Shown here piece by piece: positions 1 through 51,232 of a stretch of 64,000 bases of DNA (position 1 is its first letter; every line of letters starts with the position of its first letter). This DNA is from Octopus vulgaris. Lineage: Eukaryota. The stretch covers positions 70,308,001-70,372,000 of the forward strand of contig OX597823.1 of assembly GCA_951406725.2 (NCBI GenBank), given 5' to 3'. The notes under the pieces were generated by a model, which was not told the origin of the DNA, searched no databases, and saw only the letters and a program-made list of their open reading frames with translations. The position numbers were made by a program, and so were the translations under genes.

Positions 1-1190
1 CAGTTCTGGCATTTGTGTAACTCGTGATGCCAAAGTTTGGGACAAGTCCCTCCAGGATCTTCCAGATGTATATTATGGCATATCTTTCTCGCCTACGCTC
101 CAAGGAATAGAGTTTTAATCTCTTGAGTCTTTCCCAGTAGCTTATATTCTGCACAGAGGCTATCTTCTTCGTGTAGCTACGTTGGATCGCCTCAAGTTCT
201 GTGATCAACTTGACACTGGATGGTGACCATAGCTGAGAGCAATAGTCAAAGTGGCTTAGGACAAGTGTCCTCCAGAGGACCATCATGGTTTCTTGTTCTC
301 TTGTTCTAAAGGTTCTGAGAATCCATCCGGCCAGTTGTCTACATTTCATTGCCAATTTAGCAACATGTACACGAAAGGTTGCGCCATCACTCATGTAAAT
401 ACCCAGGTCACGCACTGATTGTGCCTCTGGGATTGCAATTCCTCCGGGTCCAGTGTATTCATTGGGTATTGCATTTAGTTTTGCATGCTGATAGTATAAA
501 GCTTGAAACTTCTCAGCATTGAACTGCATGCTATTCTTTTCAGCCCACTTGTATATTTTGTCCAGCTCACATTGCAGGCGTTTAGTGTCCTCAGGGTTCT
601 GTATTGCCTGTGAAACTTTTGTATCATCTGCATAACTTGTGATCGTGGCTCTCTGCGTGGCTGAGGGCATGTCTGAGAGGGCCATTATGAACAGTAGTGG
701 TCCCAAAACAGTGCCCTGCGGAACACCGCTCACTATTTGCGTGTTAATGGAAGTGGCCCCATTGGCTACTACCACCTGACTTCTATCTTTCAGAAAGTCA
801 TGAAGCCATTCTCCCAGTTTTCCAACTATGCTAAGATCACGCAGTTTGTGACATATCATTCCATGATCGACTTTATCAAAGGCCTTTGCAAAGTCGAGAT
901 ATATCACTTCCACATTTGAGTGGTTGAGCAGTCGTTTCAGCACCCAGTCATAGTGTTGTAGGAGCTGAGTTAAGCAGCTTCTTCCTGGTCGGAAACCATG
1001 TTGGGTGTCAGGCAGCAAGTCATTTTCTTCAAGGAAGGTGATCAGTTTCCTTCTGACTATTCATTCCATGACCTTGCTGATGTGTGAGGTCAGAGAGATA
1101 GGTCTGTAGTTTTTGGCCTCCGCTCTGCTACCTCCTTTATGAATAGGGCATATTTTACCTCCCTTCAGTTTTCTTGGAAGTTTGCCAGCT
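1..1190 (-). mobile_element. CR1/L2-group non-LTR retrotransposon fragment (RT and C-terminal region), running off the window edge
   Basis: Minus strand translates to [54 protein letters not shown] and YWERLKRLKLYSLERRRERY. There is an in-frame stop at 1061. Same family as 41690-42365 and 45760-47560. Confidence 0.9.
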
Positions 1191-40836: not shown

Positions 40837-41205
40837 GTATATATATATATTTATGTATATATATGTATGTATATATATATATTTATGTATATATATTTAT
40901 GTATATATATTTAGGTATATATATATTTATGTATGTATATATATTTATGTATATATATATTTATGTATGTATATATATTTATGTATATATATATTTATGT
41001 ATATATATATTTATGTATGTATATATATTTATGTGTATATATATTTATGTATATATATATTTATGTACGTATATATATTTATGTATATATATATTTATGT
41101 ATGTATATATATTTACGTATCTATATATTTATGTATATATATTTATTTATATATATATATGTGTGTATGTATATGTGTATGTACATACATACATACATAT
41201 ATATG
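40210..41205. repeat. (TA)n/(TATTTATGTA)n microsatellite
   Basis: Direct reading. Confidence 0.95.
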
Positions 41206-41420
41206 TGTGACAATTATTCAGTTGCCATTATAAAAATCCGAGTTTCGGATGTTGGGGCAGAAAACTGCTCCGGTATCTCGTCAGTTATTAAGACAAATAA
41301 AAATGCTATGATTTTCATAGCATTTTTGTTTGTCTTAATAACTGATGAGATGCCGGAGCAGTTTTCTGCCCCAACATCCGAAACTCGGATTTTTATTATG
41401 GCAACCGAATAATTGTCACA
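41206..41420. repeat. 215 bp near-perfect palindrome whose arms carry a hammerhead-like motif
   Basis: Arms 41206-41311 and 41315-41420 with a 3 nt loop. Right arm reads taataa-CTGATGA-GATG...CATC-c-GAAAC-tcgga-ttt-ttatta. Confidence 0.85.
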
Positions 41421-41689
41421 TATTATATTTCAGATAAATTCCTCTATTTACATAATATGGAGGTCTCATTCATTCTTTTGTTCTCATACTATTACTACTA
41501 ATATATATGTATCAACCATGCTAGCATGGAAAGCAGGCGTTAAATGACGATGATGATATATGTATATGTATAGAGATTTATATATATATCTATATATATA
41601 TATAGATTTATATATTTTTTTAATATCTAGTTTCAGCTCACATGCTGGGGCACTGCCATTTGGTGTTGCTACATAATTCACAAATGCTT

Positions 41690-42365
41690 TTTAGGAAGTG
41701 ATATTTGGTGCATGAGGGAGTTTGATGCAGCTGCTCTCATCTGCACTTCCAGCCACGAAGTTGGTTCATCTGGGACAGTTGACAGTAAGAGGTCCAGCTT
41801 TATTTTGAAGACACCTACATCCACCTCATGCAGGTCTCTCAGGTCCTTTGGGAGGATATTGAAGGGATGTGGACCTCTGAAGCCCAGGTTATTGCTGTAT
41901 CTTGTTCTACATCTTGATGGCAAATTTGGAGTCCTTGGCACTATCCAGTGGTGCCCAGTTCTAGTATTTGTGTAACTCTTGATGCCAAAGTTTGGGACAA
42001 GTCCTTCCAGGATCTTCCAGATGTATATTATGACATATCTTTCTCGCCTACACTCTAAGAAATAGTCTTAATCTCTTGAGTCTTTCCCAGAAGCTTATAT
42101 GCTGCATAGAGGCTATCTTCTTTGTGTAGCTTTGTTGGATTGCCTCAAGTTCTGAGATTAATTTGACACTGGTTGGTGACCATAGCTGAGAGCAATAGTC
42201 AAAGTGGCTTAGGACAAGTGTCCTCCAGAGGACCATCATGGTTTCCTGGTCTCTTGTTCTAAAAGCTCTGAGAATCCATCTGGTCAGCCACCTGCACTTC
42301 ATTGCCAATTTAGCAACATGCACATGGAAGGATGCATCATTACTCATGTAAATGCCCAGGTCTTG
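41690..42365 (-). mobile_element. CR1/L2-group LINE 3' fragment
   Basis: DLGIYMSNDASF, LSHFDYCSQLWSP and FNILPKDLRDL; homologous to 1-420. Confidence 0.88.
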
Positions 42366-42498
42366 CACAAATACTAGAACTGGGTGCCACTGCATAGTGC
42401 CAAGGACTCCAAATTCGCCATCAAGATATAGGACAAGTCCTTTGCTGGCAATAAAAAAATGCCAACTTTTAAAAAACCGAAAATTATCCAAAAACTTA

Positions 42499-43000
42499 TA
42501 TTTAATCATATCAAAGGGAAATGGAAATTAATAGAAATTTTCATTTCTAGTGGCCTAGTGTGTAAAAATTTAGTCCAAAGACTGTGTATGCGCAGTAGAT
42601 TTTTGAAAAAATTAGGATGTATAAACAAGAGGCACATAATTGATCGCCTTGTGTTTATATATTTAATCTAAGGTGTCCTTGTTGAAAACGATTTCACCTT
42701 GCAAGTAAAAGTAATTTACTTGCTAAACTAAAATCAGAAACCAATTGGTCCAGGAAATTAGATAGTAAAATGTTTTTATTTTTTCATTTCGTTCATGTCG
42801 CATTTTATCCCCAATTTTGTGGTTATAGAACCTAGCTGTTCTTTCTAGCGTGTTGAAACCCATGAGTGGATTCCTCGTGTGTTTAAATTTACACTGTATT
42901 TTATGAGTAATACATAGTCTTTGGACTAAATTTTTACACGCTAGGCCACTGAAGGTGAATACTTCTATTAGTTTCCATTTCCCTTCGATATGATTAAATA
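42499..43000. repeat. 502 bp element with about 90 bp imperfect terminal inverted repeats
   Basis: 42499-42589 is the reverse complement of 42910-43000 (gtggcctagtgtgtaaaaatttagtccaaagact versus agtctttggactaaatttttacacgctaggccac). Confidence 0.8.
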
Positions 43001-43023
43001 CGTATATATATATATATATATAT

Positions 43024-45621
43024 AAACAAGTCAAATTGCAATAAAATAAAATTAATTATTATCGCTGGTATTTCTAGCACGAGCCATATATTATTCATAT
43101 ATCAGTACATTAAGGCGAAATATGTGCTAGAAACACAGAAGCTAGATAAATTTAGTGAAATGAAAATAAAAACATTTACTAACTCGGTTCCTCTTAGACT
43201 GCAGTTTCGTTCTTTTCAGCAATAAAGATAATTTATTTGCTCAGGGAGAATTCATCAGTAAGAGCCCTGTTGTTCTGAGATCCTAACTCACTAGAAGCAT
43301 GTGCTTCTAATGATTTGCTCTCTCTAACTAATCAGATCACTGCGCAGACTCAGAACGTCCCGACAAAACTAGGGATTTCTGGTATATTGTCTAACGCTCA
43401 AGTCAAATTGCGATAAAATAAAATTAATTATTATCGCTGGTATTTCTAGCACGAGCCATATATTATTCATATATCAGTACATTAAGGCGAAATATGTGCT
43501 AGAAACACAGAAGCTAGATAAATTTAGTGGAATGAAAATAAAAACATTTACTAACTCGGTTCCTCTTAGACTGCAGATTCGTTCTTTTCAGCAATAAAGA
43601 TAATTTATTTGCTCAGGGAGAATTCATCGGTAAGAGCCCTGTTGTTCTGAGATCCTAACTCACTAGAAGCATGTGCTTCTAATGATTTGCTCTCTCTAAC
43701 TAATCAGATCACTGCGCAGACTCAGAACGTCCCGACAAAACTAGGGATTTCTGGTATATTGTCTAACGCTCAAAATTTATTGAGAAATATGTAAACAAGT
43801 CAAATTGCGATAAAATAAAATTAATTATTATCGCTGGTATTTCTAGCACGAGCCATATATTATTCATATATCAGTACATTAAGGCGAAATATGTGCTAGA
43901 AACACAGAAGCTAGATAAATTTAGTGAAATGAAAATAAAAACATTTACTAACTCGGTTCCTCTTAGACTGCAGATTCGTTCTTTTCAGCAATAAAGATAA
44001 TTTATTTGCTCAGGGAGAATTCATCGGTAAGAGCCCTGTTGTTCTGAGATCCTAACTCACTAGAAGCATGTGCTTCTAATGATTTGCTCTCTCTAACTAA
44101 TCAGATCACTGCGCAGACTCAGAACGTCCCGACAAAACTAGGGATTTCTGGTATATTGTCTAACGCTCAAAATTTATCGAGAAATATGTAAACAAGTCAA
44201 ATTGCGATAAAATAAAATTAATTATTATCGCTGGTATTTCTAGCACGAGCCATATATTATTCATATATCAGTACATTGAGGCGAAATATGTGCTAGAAAC
44301 ACAGAAGCTAGATAAATTTAGTGAAATGAAAATAAAAACATTTACTAACTCGGTTCCTCTTAGACTGCAGTTTCGTTCTTTTCAGCAATAAATATAATTT
44401 ATTTGCTCAGGGAGAATTCATCGGTAAGAGCCCTGTTGTTCTGAGATCCTAACTCACTAGAAGCATGTGCTTCTAATGATTTGCTCTCTAACTAATCAGA
44501 TCACTGCGCAGACTCAGAATGTCCCGACAAAACTAGGGATTTCTGGTATATTGTCTAACGCTCAAAATTTATCGAGAAATATGTAAACAAGTCAAATTGC
44601 GATAAAATAAAATAAATTAATATCGCTGGTATTTCTAGCACGAGCCATATATTATTCATATATCAGTACATTAAGGCGAAATATGTGCTAGAAACACAGA
44701 AGCTAGATAAATTTAGTGAAATGAAAATAAAAACATTTACTCACTCGGTTCCTCTTAGACTACAGTTTCGTTCTTTTCAGCAATAAAGATAATTTATTTG
44801 CTCAGGGAGAATTCATCGGTAAGAGCCCTGTTGTTCTGAGATCCTAACTCACTAGAAGCATGTGCTTCTAATGATTTGCTCTCTCTAACTAATCAGATCA
44901 CTGCGCAGACTCAGAACGTCCCGACAAAACTAGGGATTTCTGGTATATTGTCTAACGCTCAAAATTTATCGAGAAATATGTAAACAAGTCAAATTGCGAT
45001 AAAATAAAATTAATTATTATCGCTGGTATTTCTAGCATGAGCCATATATTATCCATATTCAGTACATTAAGGCGAAATATGTGCTAGAAACACAGAAGCT
45101 AGATAAATTTAGTGGAATGAAAATAAAAACATTTACTAACTCGGTTCCTCTTAGACTGCAGTTTCGTTCTTTTCAGCAATAAAGATAATTTATTTGCTCA
45201 GGGAGAATTCATCGGTAAGAGCCCTGTTGTTCTGAGATCCTAACTCACTAGAAGCATGTGCTTCTAATGATTTGCTCTCTCTAACTAATCAGATCACTGC
45301 GCAGACTCAGAACGTCCCGACAAAACTAGGGATTTCTGGTATATTGTCTAACGCTCAAAATTTATCGAGAAATATGTAAACAAGTCAAATTGCGATAAAA
45401 TAAAATTAATTATTATCGCTGGTATTTCTAGCACGAGCCATATATTATTCATATATCAGTACATTAAGGCGAAATATGTGCTAGAAACACAGAAGCTAGA
45501 TAAATTTAGTGAAATGAAAATAAAAACATTTACTAACTCGGTTCCTCTTAGACTGCAGTTTCGTTCTTTTCAGCAATAAAGATAATTTATTTGCTCAGGG
45601 AGAATTCATCGGTAAGAGCCC
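43024..45621 (-). repeat. Tandem array of about 397 bp units (6.6 copies), one hammerhead motif per unit; retrozyme-like
   Basis: Unit starts (aagtcaaattgc) at 43028, 43400, 43797, 44194, 44589, 44986 and 45382. Units are near-identical and flanked on both sides by (TA)n. Confidence 0.95.
43191..43264 (-). ncRNA. Type-I hammerhead ribozyme (unit 1 of the 397 bp array)
   Basis: Minus strand reads CTCTTA-CTGATGA-aTTCT...AGAAc-GAAA-CTGCAG-TC-TAAGAG. Stem I is a perfect 6 bp and the triplet is GUC. Predicted cut between 43197 and 43196. Confidence 0.8.
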
Positions 45622-45759
45622 GATATATATATATATATATATATGTATGTATATGTATATATGTAATATATATATATATATATTTTTTTTTCTTTGTAGT
45701 TTCAGCTCAGAGCTGTGGCCATGCTGGAGCACCACAGTTTTGTGACACTGTTATTACTG

Positions 45760-47560
45760 AGAGCCTCTAATATGTGGCACTTGGTGAAGAATGGAGTTTG
45801 ATGTAGCTACCCTCATTTGCACCTATTGCCGTGAGGTAGACTCATCTAGGACTTTTGACAGGAAGAGGTCCAGCCTTGATTTTAAAATGCCTACATCTAC
45901 TTTATGCAGGTTCCTCAAGCTCTTTGGAAGAATATTAAAAAGCTGTGTGCTCCTGAAACTCTGGCTGTTGCAGTAACTGGTCCTGAAGTGCGATGGCATT
46001 GCCGGGATCTTTGGCACTGTGCAGTGTCAACCCGTTCTGGCATTGGTGTAACTTTCAATGCCAAAATTTGGCACAGTTCTTTCCAGGATCTTTCAGATGT
46101 TTATTACTGCATACCTCTACTATCTTCGCTCCAGAGAGTAGAGTCTTAGCAGTTTCAGCCTTTCCCAGTAGCTGAGCTGTTGCAAAGAGACGATCATCTT
46201 TGTGAAGCTTCACTGGATTGCTTCAAGGTCCGCTGTTAATTTTACATTGTTGGGTGATCATAGCTGGGTGCAGTAATCCAGGTGGCTGAGGACGAATATT
46301 CTCCATAGGACCATCATGGTTTCCTTATCTCTGGTTCTGAATGTTCTCAGGATCCATCCATCCAGTTGTCTGCACTTTGTCGCCATCCTGGTAATGTGCA
46401 CTTGGAAAGAGGTATCATCACTCATGTCGAAACCCGGGTCCCTCACTGATTAACACTCTGGAATTGAAATTCCCTGTGGATCAGTGTACCCTGTAAGTTT
46501 CATATTCAGTTTTGGGTACTGGTAGTGCATGGCTTGGAATTTTTGAGCATTAAACTGCATATTATTATCCTCAGCCCATCTGTAAATTGAATCCAATTCC
46601 TGCTGCAGATGTGCAACATAGATGAGATTCTGTATTTTCTGCAAGACTTTCATATTGTCTGTGTAGCAAGCAAGGGTGGCTATCTGGGCAGTTGAGGGCA
46701 TATCTGAGAGGGCCGCTATGAAAAGCAGTGGTCCCAAGACAGTGCCCTGTGGAACACCGCTCACTATTTGTATTTTCATTGAGGTGGCTCCATTGGCCAC
46801 TACTGCCTGACTTCTATCTTTCAGAAAGTCATGTAACCACTCTCCAAGTTTTCCAGCTATGCCGAGATCATGCAGTTTGTGGCATATCATACCATGATCT
46901 ACTTTATCAAAAGCTTTTGCAAAGTCAAGGTATATTATGAGCACATTTGAGTTTTTTAGTAACTGCCTGAACACCCAGTCATAATGTTGCAAGAGCTGGA
47001 TCAGGCAGCTCCTACCTGGTCAAAAGCCATGCTGGGTCTCACTCAGCAAGTTATTTTCTTCAAGGAATGCGATTAGTTTCCCTCTGGTCAGAGAGATAGG
47101 CCTATATGTTTTGGCATCTGCTCTGCTTCCCCCTTTATGGATTGGGCATATTAATCCCTCCTTCAGCTTCCTTGGTAGCTTGCCATTTGCAAGAAAGCTC
47201 TGGAAGAGAATCTGGATGGGTTTTGCCAGGGCACACACGATTTGAGGAGGATTGCTAGGAAACCATCAGGACCAGCACTTGAGTTTGCGTCCACCTCATC
47301 TATGGCTAGTAGTACATTTTCTTCACTAATGTCGATGTATTCCATCATAACTACCCTGCTGGTTATAGGTGAGGTGGCAAAGAAATCCACTGGTTTGTTC
47401 ACTTGTCTGCATTCCAATGGGGTGGTAAAGACACTTTTGAACTGGTCATTCAGTACCTCACTGATCCTGGTTGGACTATCTGTGAGGGAGCCTTTCTTTT
47501 GGAAGAGGGCTCCTATCTTGCAGTGTACTGAGACTGTTTCTTTCGCTTAATAAAAGAAGG
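45760..47560 (-). mobile_element. CR1/L2-group LINE, decayed RT
   Basis: SSAGPDG, YRPISLT, YLDFAKAFDKVDH, GVPQGTVLGP and LSHLDYCTQL. Confidence 0.9.
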
Positions 47561-48015: not shown

Positions 48016-48574
48016 AATATATATATATATATATATATATAAGGAAAAATAAGTTCAAAAATGAACAATTCAAACTTTTTGAGAGGTCCAAAAAGAGAGA
48101 AAGAATGATTTCTAATAAAGATTCATCATATTCATCATATTCAAAACAGTCGGAGCAAGTAATAAGAATATGAAAATAGTAGTTGAAAAATATCGTTATA
48201 GGCATAAATATACCATAAACAATTATAGAAAAATGGAGGAGAAAAAGGTGTTGCATCAGAATTAGATTTAATACAAAATAGGATTCAATACATATGCGCA
48301 TTTCAAAGGACAATGCAAATATCTAAGAAAAAATTATAACCATACACTCTCAGAGTGGTTGGCATCAGGAAGGGCATCCAGCTGTAGAAACTCTCCCAGA
48401 CCAGATTGGAGCCTGGTGCAGCCACTGGCTCTCCAGACCTCAGTCAAACTGTCCAACCCATGCTAGCATAGAAAACGGACGTTAAACGATGATGATACAC
48501 ATATAAATACATATAACGAGAATAAGAAAACCCATTTTATACAATTCGATATATGTAACTATTACCAGTCTATT

Positions 48575-51232
48575 ACGGAGGATCTACTGGTGAAAGTAAT
48601 TGTTTGCCGAGAAATTTGTGGCTATAACCCCTTTAGAAAAATACATTATTTTCACAGCTAGGACAACCTTAATTTCTTTTAAAAACAAACTCTGGACCCG
48701 TAATGATATTGACGAAAATTTCAACGTTACTATGGGTTCCTCTGATTCAGCCCAGATCATGGTCCTGGTGGGCCTGTTCCTCCTTTCAAAAATTAAGGAG
48801 GAATTCCTAAACATCAGGGGAGGTTTGTATAGGGACGATGCTCTATTTGCTATTTCAGGTTGTACATTACCAACAATCTATAGAATGGAGAAAAACTTAA
48901 ATTTTTTAAGGTATATAATTTGGAGATCTTGTCTGAAAATACCACTAAAACTGTTAACTTTCTAGATGTAACATTAAATTTGGATAATAGGTTATTTTAT
49001 CCCTATTATAAGCCAGATAAAAACCATCCAATATATCCACACATTATCTAACCATCCCCAAAGTATCATCAACGGAGTGATTAGGGGAATTTCGATTAAA
49101 TGATCTAACTTGTCAGCAAACCAAATAGTTTCTAATAATGTCACACTGTTTTTAACACAGCTTTGAGGAATAGTGGTTTTAGTGAGGATATATATATCCT
49201 ATTCAAATACTGATTAGGTAAATGTTTTCCAAACCTAGCTGAATCCAATATTGATATCTCATTTGTAAATAACCATTGGGAGATTTTCTAGGTATCCTAG
49301 CATGTATAATAATAATAATGATAATAATAATAACAAAAAGCAGCAAACTGGAAGTAAGACTGAGAAAACGGGAAATTATATGGTTTAACCCCTACCACTT
49401 TTTCCCTGTAGGTTAAAAATCTCCCTAAGATGTTTTTTTAATATCATCAATAAGAATTTCCCTGTGGGCCATAAACACCGTTCTATCTTTAATAAATCCT
49501 GTCTAAAACTTGCATACTCATCTATGCCTAATTTAGGATCGATAATCACATGGAACAATAGATTCAAGCTTGGGAATAATGGGAATAAGGGTAGCCCCAA
49601 TACGAGTAGGATTAATAACAGATAAAGAACGCACAGGGATGAGCAACTGAAATAAAGCCTGCAATTGTCAGAACTGCAATTTATGTCCATTAGAGGCTTC
49701 CTGTCTAAGGAAAAATGTCATATACAAGACTGAGGTCATAATTGCCCATCAACCTAGGAAAGTATACATAGGAACTACCACAGATTTCAAAACAAGATAT
49801 AGAGAAAACATCAGCTCTTTCTTGAACCCAGGAACAAAAAATGCCACTGCGCTGGCTACATATATTAACAAACTAAAAATGCAAGATAAGGAATTTAGAT
49901 TAGACTAGTTGATCATAACGGAAACCACCCCATATAAAAAGTATACTGGAAAGAGTAAGTTATGTACGAAGGAAGCAATAGGTATACTTCATACAGACAA
50001 GAAAATTTTAATTAATAAAATATCAGACCGTATAATTGCATGTAGGCATAAATATTTAGCTACGTTTAAGTTTTTTAAAAAGTAGAAAGGATAGAATCTG
50101 ATCTTATGAACTTTGACTTACCTTAAGAAAATAATAATTTCTTCCACTTTGGCTAGATTTGATCAACCTAAAAGTTTAAGGGTAAATTTTTTATACATCT
50201 TAGTAATTCACAGGCTTAGTGTCACATTCAAACCTATTAACCTTATATATATATATAAGTTGTAAGTTAACGATCATTGTAAATTGTAAATCACAAATAT
50301 CAGTGAATTTTTAGACTGTTCCCACTAACATTTTGCATATATGGATTCCCCTTACTTTAATTGTTTACCATTTTTAATTATCAGCAATCCGACTATCTTA
50401 TATAGTTAACCAGGTTTAACCCAAATTTGAATCCTCATTTTATTTTATTTCTACAAATATTTTAAATTTCATTTTCATTTGCACAAATGTTTTACTTCAC
50501 AACTTTTTCCACTTCACAAAGCCTTTCTATATTATTGCAAACTTCTTTTTAAAATACTATAACATTTTTTTACAAAAATATAAGATTACTGAATATGACT
50601 TCAAGTTTTGTAAGTAGGAGATATTTTAAGCTTTCTCAATGTTTAAACTATTTTAATTGATTTATTTGTACCTCTGATGAGAGAAATGCGACTATTTGTT
50701 TCGGCTGGAAAACTCACCCTATACAAACACATTCCTCGAAATGATTGTAAGGTTTTGTAATACTGCTTTTCTTTGGATTGTAATAATCGAGCGCTTGAAA
50801 CCTGACATCTTGATGTATTTTTTTATGTATATTGTATTCCCATGATAATGGAACTTGACCTATAAAATCTGTCATCCGCTTTGATTTTGTTATATTTCAC
50901 TCATATTGAGCACTAACAAGGTGTGTTGCAACAAAGGTTCTCCTCTTGTCTTATTATTCAATATCTGCTCAAACTGAGCACTTCTTGCAGCTTTAACTTA
51001 TGGAGCAACAATTTCCAGGGCTGTTCGCAAAAAATATCCCAATACCAACAAGGGGACTATACATGGATTTATTATTACAAAATAATTAGTGAGTTCATCA
51101 GAAGAATGAGATGGAAAGCATACTTTTACGATGATAAGAAAGGAAGGCTAATTAATAATAATAGAAATTTTAACAACTGCAACTTAAAGACCTATAGATA
51201 TCCACCCCACAACCCCACACTTGAGAACTTTG
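48575..51232 (+). mobile_element. Decayed Penelope-like element (Naiad-type): 5'-truncated RT + GIY-YIG, 3' region with HHR, then start of a tandem copy
   Basis: RT remnants FNVTMGSSDSAQ, GGLYRDD, VNFLDVTLNL, SNHP, IIWFNP and LAYSSMPNL. Endonuclease CNCQNCNLCPLEASCLRKNVIYK...VYIGTT...CRHK, stop at 50085. Downstream N-terminus from ATG 51000: KNIPIP...EFIRRMRWKAYF. Confidence 0.85.
50670..50753 (+). ncRNA. Hammerhead ribozyme in the Penelope pLTR
   Basis: acct-CTGATGA-GAGaaatg...cattcCTC-GAAA-tgattG-TA-aggt; stem I is acct/aggt. Confidence 0.7.

Follow-up and report, generated by a model that had tools for sequence, protein, structure and literature searches.

What is a tandem array of short units, each with a hammerhead ribozyme (HHR) motif, doing inside a (TA)n microsatellite of the octopus genome, and what copied it there? 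We analysed such an array at positions 43024..45621 of a 64,000-nucleotide stretch of Octopus vulgaris DNA (the window). The retrozyme class is already known and the array alone is ordinary; the value of the analysis lies in mapping insertion ends across the family. At stake are the enzyme that copies animal retrozymes, its template, and the role of the ribozyme in vivo. We put at about three in four the probability of the following reading: the array represents a single insertion of a dispersed non-LTR retrozyme family and was likely lengthened locally, and the family likely owes its mobility to a Penelope-like element (PLE) acting in trans, most likely one of the Hydra type, which targets (TA)n.

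With the minus strand as RNA sense, the array holds 6.6 near-identical non-coding units of about 397 bp (TRF period 397, 98% matches) set in (TA)n, as the sequence-only reading had described. The target tracts, assigned to neither strand, lie at 43003..43023 (3' side of the element) and 45623..45683 (5' side). Unit numbering starts at GGGCTC, and the seven minus-strand HHR starts are at 45621, 45224, 44828, 44433, 44036, 43639 and 43267. The corresponding lengths are 397, 396, 395, 397, 397, 372 and 244 nt, the 372-nt unit having a 25-nt deletion. Units differ by 1 to 8 substitutions, and their GC content is 0.33-0.35. No open reading frame of 80 aa or more was found within the array, nor any LTR structure or internal domain between its repeats; the units run head to tail, with TA flanks only. 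The cut is predicted after unit position 71, and one predicted cut-to-cut monomer RNA of 397 nt (45154..45550, minus strand) folds at -92.2 kcal/mol, with a modest z of -1.85.

Other repeats lie close by. A MITE-like element (42499-43000) with 91-nt terminal inverted repeats (89%) adjoins the array's (TA)n by its right end, inverted LINE fragments occupy 41901-42437, and a 109-nt near-perfect hairpin is found at 41203-41423. Decayed LINE fragments, apparently separate copies, stand on either side of the array (41631-42527 and 45880-47550); the flanking fragment at 46450-47016 matches RVT_1 (E 1e-19).

The sequence-only reading had proposed a type I HHR in each unit. Stem I (CUCUUA/UAAGAG), an extended stem II, GAAAC-UGCA-GUC, the A10.1-C11.1 pair and the predicted cut at 43197|43196 were all seen on the minus strand as claimed, and there are indeed seven motifs, but the changes that several of them carry had been overlooked. 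Only the last unit (43191..43264, minus strand like all the others) has the canonical CUGAUGA, possibly through CpG decay of the family's CCGA. The core of the other six is CCGAUGA (U4C). Among these, the motifs at 44357..44430, 45148..45221 and 45545..45618 (the array's first) have predicted cuts after 44363, 45154 and 45551, and that at 44752..44825, the one motif with a changed stem III palindrome, after 44758. The two at 43563..43636 (in the unit with the deletion) and 43960..44033 also have A15.1 changed to U (GAAUC) and are likely inactive. Mismatch A10.1-C11.1 is present in all seven. Rfam Hammerhead_1 matched five of the seven at 26.7-32.5 bits (E 5e-5 to 4e-3), short of the gathering score of 34. 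The hammerhead is not the minimum-energy structure of the window family (-7.2 versus -10.6 kcal/mol), and this, together with the 10.1-11.1 mismatch and the prevalence of U4C, counts against the reading preferred here. According to the available text of PMC3088659, U4C lowers activity in vitro, yet is sufficient for a viroid in vivo. Stem III and its loop form the palindrome ACUGCAGU, with a self-duplex of -11.1 kcal/mol; palindromic stem III has been linked to double-hammerhead cleavage (PMC4209133 and PMC3088659, in the parts available). Judged by their letters, the window's HHRs appear to be among the weakest of the clan, by which we mean the family and its sister families, and the window branch its least canonical form.

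The octopus genome itself (2.8 Gb, 227 contigs) was searched at the DNA level; 39 of 693 candidates were scored, giving 130 matches. The exact family HHR pattern was matched at least 232 times, against 0 for a reversed control, and exact 3' junctions defined at least 187 insertions (83 + 104), again against 0 in the control. Insertions range from 24 nt to 28 units, so the dispersed arrays of variable copy number that the sequence-only reading had expected do exist and the locus is not a single one. The clan is young, with about 0.7% divergence within arrays (first 39 arrays). A pattern that disallowed A at 10.1 gave 255 further matches, and most of the 100 listed belong to sister families of about 400 bp with a canonical G10.1-C11.1. 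An Rfam RF00163 search of the genome returned six matches, all unrelated.

Comparison across the clan also revealed the covariation that had been anticipated among homologues. Proximal stem II reads AUUCU/AGAAC or AGAAA, GCCU/AGGC, GCCA/UGGC or GUCU/AGAC, and stem I shows a UA/CG swap. Pairing reaches 98.6% in stem I, the distal hairpin and stem III of 18 representative HHRs, a count that leaves aside stem II, read separately, and that comes from related sequences, so that the shuffle figure is not a probability. All four bases occur at N7, and N17 is restricted to C or A. Covarying stems I and II, a free N7 and a restricted N17 argue that the HHR fold is real and under selection. With non-coding 397-bp tandem units, a type I HHR in each and dispersed arrays, the architecture is that of non-LTR retrozymes, as had been proposed, and none of the sequence-level outcomes named as fatal to the proposal (a single locus, no covariation, no dispersed arrays) was found. 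The array fits the sequence-level definition of a non-LTR retrozyme given in PMC7229834 and in the review PMC7761336.

Some loci depart from the family pattern. Another HHR-bearing repeat family (L156, L164, L170, L171) keeps the ACUGCAGU palindrome and TA-joined ends with a different stem II; blastn detected no similarity of L164, L170 and L171 to the unit. Inside one retrozyme unit, a tRNA-like SINE of about 290 bp is inserted with a 10-bp duplication (L005:2037-2325). L012 is an atypical copy ending at unit 98, with a direct duplication of about 120 bp on its flanks. Finally, L014, L020 and L027 have HHR-impairing changes (C3G, C17G and C3U, respectively) in most or all units.

The informative end of the array is its fixed 3' end at unit 244, not the 5' end at an HHR start to which the sequence-only reading had drawn attention. 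The position of that 5' end was correctly given; its meaning did not hold, since only 5 of 111 ends (insertions of at least 100 nt) fall at unit 392-397/1-8. The rate there is background-like, and the end looks like a chance truncation. At the other side, the unit sequence stops at ...TTGACTTGTTT and is joined to (AT)n (43024..43050, minus strand). The same junction was found in 37 of the 39 best-scoring arrays, the exceptions being L012 and L040, and in 25 of 25 arrays selected by the HHR alone, 173 nt downstream of the predicted cut. Within the unit, the RNA reads on past this point with ACAUAU, which is TA-target-like. We infer that reverse transcription starts here.

A pile-up of 5' ends in the first 39 arrays was possibly an artefact of the score threshold, and ends were therefore retested on junction-selected loci. 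They were mapped in 174 of the 187 insertions: 63 are shorter than 100 nt; 92 extend through the cut site; and lengths above 397 nt, 574 nt and two units are reached by 61, 22 and 13, respectively. The 5' flank is TA-like in 135 of the 174. Target-site duplications were limited to four candidates of 10-12 nt, far from the junctions, in a set of which part has 3' flanks long enough and in which TA runs can mask short ones. One 3' end, variable 5' truncation, partial tandems and a (TA)n microsatellite target together match the outcome of target-primed reverse transcription begun inside the template, as in PLEs, and bear out the PLE-type insertion proposed earlier.

The 5' ends are not evenly spread. 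Unit 68-80 holds the 5' ends of 18 of the 111 insertions of at least 100 nt, where the density in the 65 nt to each side predicts 4.35 (Poisson P 8e-7). This is the best window of the whole unit, the next best having P 4e-3. The window 68-80 was picked after the first 60 loci; in the 100 later loci, a held-out set that lacks 14 long elements examined earlier, 7 ends fell there versus 1.99 expected (P 0.004). The excess exists both in the U4C subfamily (7 versus 2.1) and in the other group (11 versus 2.2), and microhomology does not explain it, because the stretch is TA-poor. Early 5' ends cluster at another hairpin too, at unit 187-199. Stops at the cut amount to 9 of 101 in a first pass and 9 of 31 in a second. 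An even rise of stops after one full turn was considered and rejected, as stops in the second pass increase only between positions 144 and 68.

This clustering at the predicted cut is a hint of ribozyme folding or cutting inside the cell. Fifteen of the 18 ends lie at 72-80, three of them exactly at 72, and three lie at 68-69, just upstream of the cut. With so few ends exactly at 72 and three beyond the cut, stalling at a folded ribozyme accounts for the cluster no less well than run-off at the cut 5' end.

What was the template? In 53 insertions with positions copied twice, the passes differ at 63 of 10,006 positions, and no difference is both pass-specific and recurrent. Private alleles in these insertions are common to all passes in 10 cases and single in 37. 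For the first 39 arrays, with short or ragged units dropped (leaving 119 of 130), 18 alleles are shared, 73 are single and 12 occur in subsets. The pass comparison fits one molecule copied more than once and mutated later; very homogeneous multimers or conversion could produce it too. Rolling copying from a closed circle may plausibly be involved. In three small sets (two presumed RNA, one of unsure kind) and one large set, family contigs span the cut and continue round the unit; tandem DNA does likewise.

The strongest rival, which we nevertheless consider unlikely, sees in the array a non-autonomous PLE derivative whose templates were uncleaved multimers, without any circle, and in the HHR a folded relic or a protein-binding site at which reverse transcriptase stalls. 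Uncleaved RNA was the main substrate of one PLE in vitro and HHR cleavage was dispensable for insertion there (PMC11167929); 8 of 9 retrozyme dimers showed no cleavage in another study (bioRxiv 10.64898/2026.07.22.740005). The non-canonical cores of the window subfamily, the persistence of the 5'-end cluster among U4C copies and the ends at 68-69, which are incompatible with run-off, all speak for it. So do L014 and L020, in which both units have the impairing change (C3G and C17G): such arrays are hard to explain from a self-cleaved monomer, unless cutting occurred in trans or units were homogenised locally. However, differences between the units of an uncleaved multimer should be inherited in constant order, and no such recurrence was seen. 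The longest array, of 28 units, was rejected as a master locus, its alleles being absent from all other loci compared. The invariant core, together with the free N7 and the C or A at N17, is a better fit to catalysis than to mere binding, and stops fall sharply upstream of the cut, from 15 at 72-80 to 3 at 56-67.

Very improbable as the sole mechanism is a satellite born of a solitary PLE terminal repeat and grown only by local unequal crossover. Local growth has left traces. The 28-unit array (G000:C5:112643600-112654600, L137-L138), which has the standard 3' end, carries private alleles in a mosaic over non-adjacent units: a satellite in the making out of a retrozyme insertion. In the window array, one private allele is present in all seven units and in none of the other loci compared, and two others occur in 2/7 units each. 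Long arrays, the window's included, bear signs of local duplication or conversion. Against crossover alone stand the dispersed insertions themselves, with their single 3' end and fractional lengths. As 61 of 174 exceed one unit and just 13 exceed two, more-than-unit length is made at insertion, and no PLE body was attached to the copies examined. Local growth accounts for the long end of the length distribution but not for the family, and crossover as the only mechanism is largely refuted. The rolling reverse transcription that the sequence-only reading had invoked is upheld in that copies go beyond one unit, and needs correction in that long arrays are partly local growth.

Which enzyme could be responsible? 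About 3 kb from the array lies a decayed Hydra-type PLE (48560-50760, plus strand) with a YRDD reverse transcriptase motif, a CxCx5C linker and a GIY-YIG-like domain; an HHR-like motif follows it near 50674, and the element is not homologous to the array. Its endonuclease region gave 8,683 candidates in the genome. An 806-aa open PLE frame between (TA)n runs (L087, G000:C5:50454500-50461500) contains DKT, YRDD, CxCx5C, GIY-YIG-like, CxxC and CxH motifs, an inverted 5' arm and two different HHR motifs with palindromic stem III. Its RWK motif was not found, Pfam gave no match to the frame, and its atlas neighbours are HTH_animal and GIY-YIG families, which is a lead only. The inverted arm ends at a U-rich UGU/UUA site loosely like the retrozyme start site. 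As Hydra-clade PLEs have DKT, CxCx5C, CxxC and CxH motifs and target (TA)n (PMC8557442, in the text available), this frame is a candidate for an active Hydra-type element.

The search for an autonomous PLE homologous to the unit was negative: when a dimer was compared by blastn with 50 PLE loci, drawn from the 8,683 candidates, no match fell below E 0.5. Nor did tblastn of the PLE protein find a PLE frame joined to any locus of the family or its sister; the only match, at L155/L172, is a decayed PLE past TA runs and a SINE, unjoined to the repeat. The lack of a sequence-linked or attached partner counts against PLE mobilisation.

PLE-like behaviour shows in a sister family (that of L142, represented by its best-scoring matches L337-L366) that shares about 79% identity with the unit. 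Inverted arms were seen in 23 of its 30 loci (20 of 27 distinct ones), and in 14 of the 20 inverted loci one arm starts at the main site and the other about 89 nt upstream, suggesting from these junctions that both target strands may be primed, as twins. Inverted two-start arms are the PLE 'tail' signature of PMC11167929. The window's family had no inverted arm in 160 insertions or among the 39 arrays, and its second start site gave 0 matches; at that position a G interrupts the UA-like run. In this the window's family is unlike many PLE insertions, which counts against the preferred reading. Inverted arms and a two-start 'tail' are optional in PLEs. To our knowledge, Naiads, for their part, have been reported without canonical HHRs. 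A SINE-like element moved by an ordinary LINE (for instance the flanking RVT_1 elements) or by a Naiad-type PLE is scarcely credible: LINE reverse transcriptase fragments do flank the array, a fixed 3' end with variable 5' ends is general to target-primed elements, and Naiads use (TA)n targets and are present in cephalopods (PMC8557442, available text), but the copies have no poly(A) or other tail and start internally on a tandem template, no target duplication was seen where the 3' flank was covered, and the sister family makes inverted two-start insertions.

Mobilisation of a retrozyme in trans by a Hydra-type PLE could proceed as follows. Arrays would be transcribed, and some HHRs would cut after unit 71, with the palindromic stem III probably pairing them into double hammerheads; the products would be 397-nt monomers in the form of nicked or ligated circles. 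A PLE endonuclease would nick (TA)n and reverse transcription would start inside the RNA at 244, primed by partial pairing of TA with ACAUAU; the start is seen in the junctions, and the enzyme is a supposition. As the ends testify, copying halts at variable points, with an excess at the cut site or immediately ahead of it; in most cases, though, it continues past the cut, and a full unit is frequently exceeded. Most insertions would stem from one RNA molecule copied repeatedly, and long arrays would then grow and be shuffled by local duplication and conversion.

Known retrozymes share much with this family. Metazoan non-LTR retrozymes are 150-450-bp non-coding tandem units with GC below 45% and a type I HHR each (Cervera and de la Pena 2020, PMC7229834). 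In the available text of that paper they have, as here, a short palindromic helix III and dispersed arrays of about one to dozens of units, and a mussel family of 350-390 bp compares with 397 bp here. The octopus HHR differs from those in that text by a long interrupted stem II and, in the window branch, by A-C or A-A at 10.1-11.1 and often U4C. The same part of the paper does not describe three features of the present family: strict (TA)n targeting, a single internal 3' end and a cut-site 5' cluster; expression and circles are demonstrated there, whereas the octopus family is known from genomic DNA.

Li, Clavereau and Pollet (bioRxiv 10.64898/2026.07.22.740005) regard retrozymes as non-autonomous PLE derivatives, in a sample without molluscs. 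Both studies find PLE co-occurrence and mostly short arrays, with few long, locally amplified ones. Their link to PLEs is pLTR homology in Xenopus; ours is insertion anatomy, with no homologous pLTR found among 50 PLE loci. They propose that arrays grew by local unequal crossover out of a solitary PLE terminal repeat, whereas the present ends argue that more-than-unit copies form at insertion, and not by local growth alone. The array works like a non-autonomous PLE derivative, although pLTR homology was not seen in a small sample (50 of 8,683).

The Poseidon PLE of Anolis (Frangieh et al. 2024, PMC11167929) likewise starts reverse transcription internally, downstream of an HHR cut, at an AT-rich target. 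Both strands can be extended and two starts give a 'tail', as in the sister family. Poseidon is autonomous and its start site is not homologous to the target, whereas both start sites here border UA-like RNA, which suggests that the primer may pair partially. No RNA ends at the HHR cut were found for Poseidon; here genomic 5' ends cluster at it. Hydra-clade PLEs (Craig et al. 2021, PMC8557442, in its available part) share (TA)n targeting and HHRs with this family; the repeat differs in being protein-free, with no detectable sequence in common with the Hydra-type loci sampled. Our search of the accessible literature turned up no description of an octopus or cephalopod retrozyme, or of end mapping of retrozyme insertions.

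The clan offers hundreds of insertions with a fixed start and measurable stops, HHR variants from canonical to U4C, a two-start sister family and an intact-frame PLE, and is thus testable by the published in vitro PLE assay. A narrower version of PLE mobilisation, possible but doubtful in our estimate, takes the insertion ends as a fossil record: a Hydra-type PLE would prime at an invariant UA-like site on a self-cleaved monomer held together by its hammerhead (a nicked circle), cross the nick, displace its cDNA and tend to stop on arriving at the nick a second time. If true, loss of the second priming site would account for the lack of inverted arms in the window branch, and the ends would be in vivo evidence both of HHR cleavage in retrotransposition and of the enzyme that moves retrozymes.
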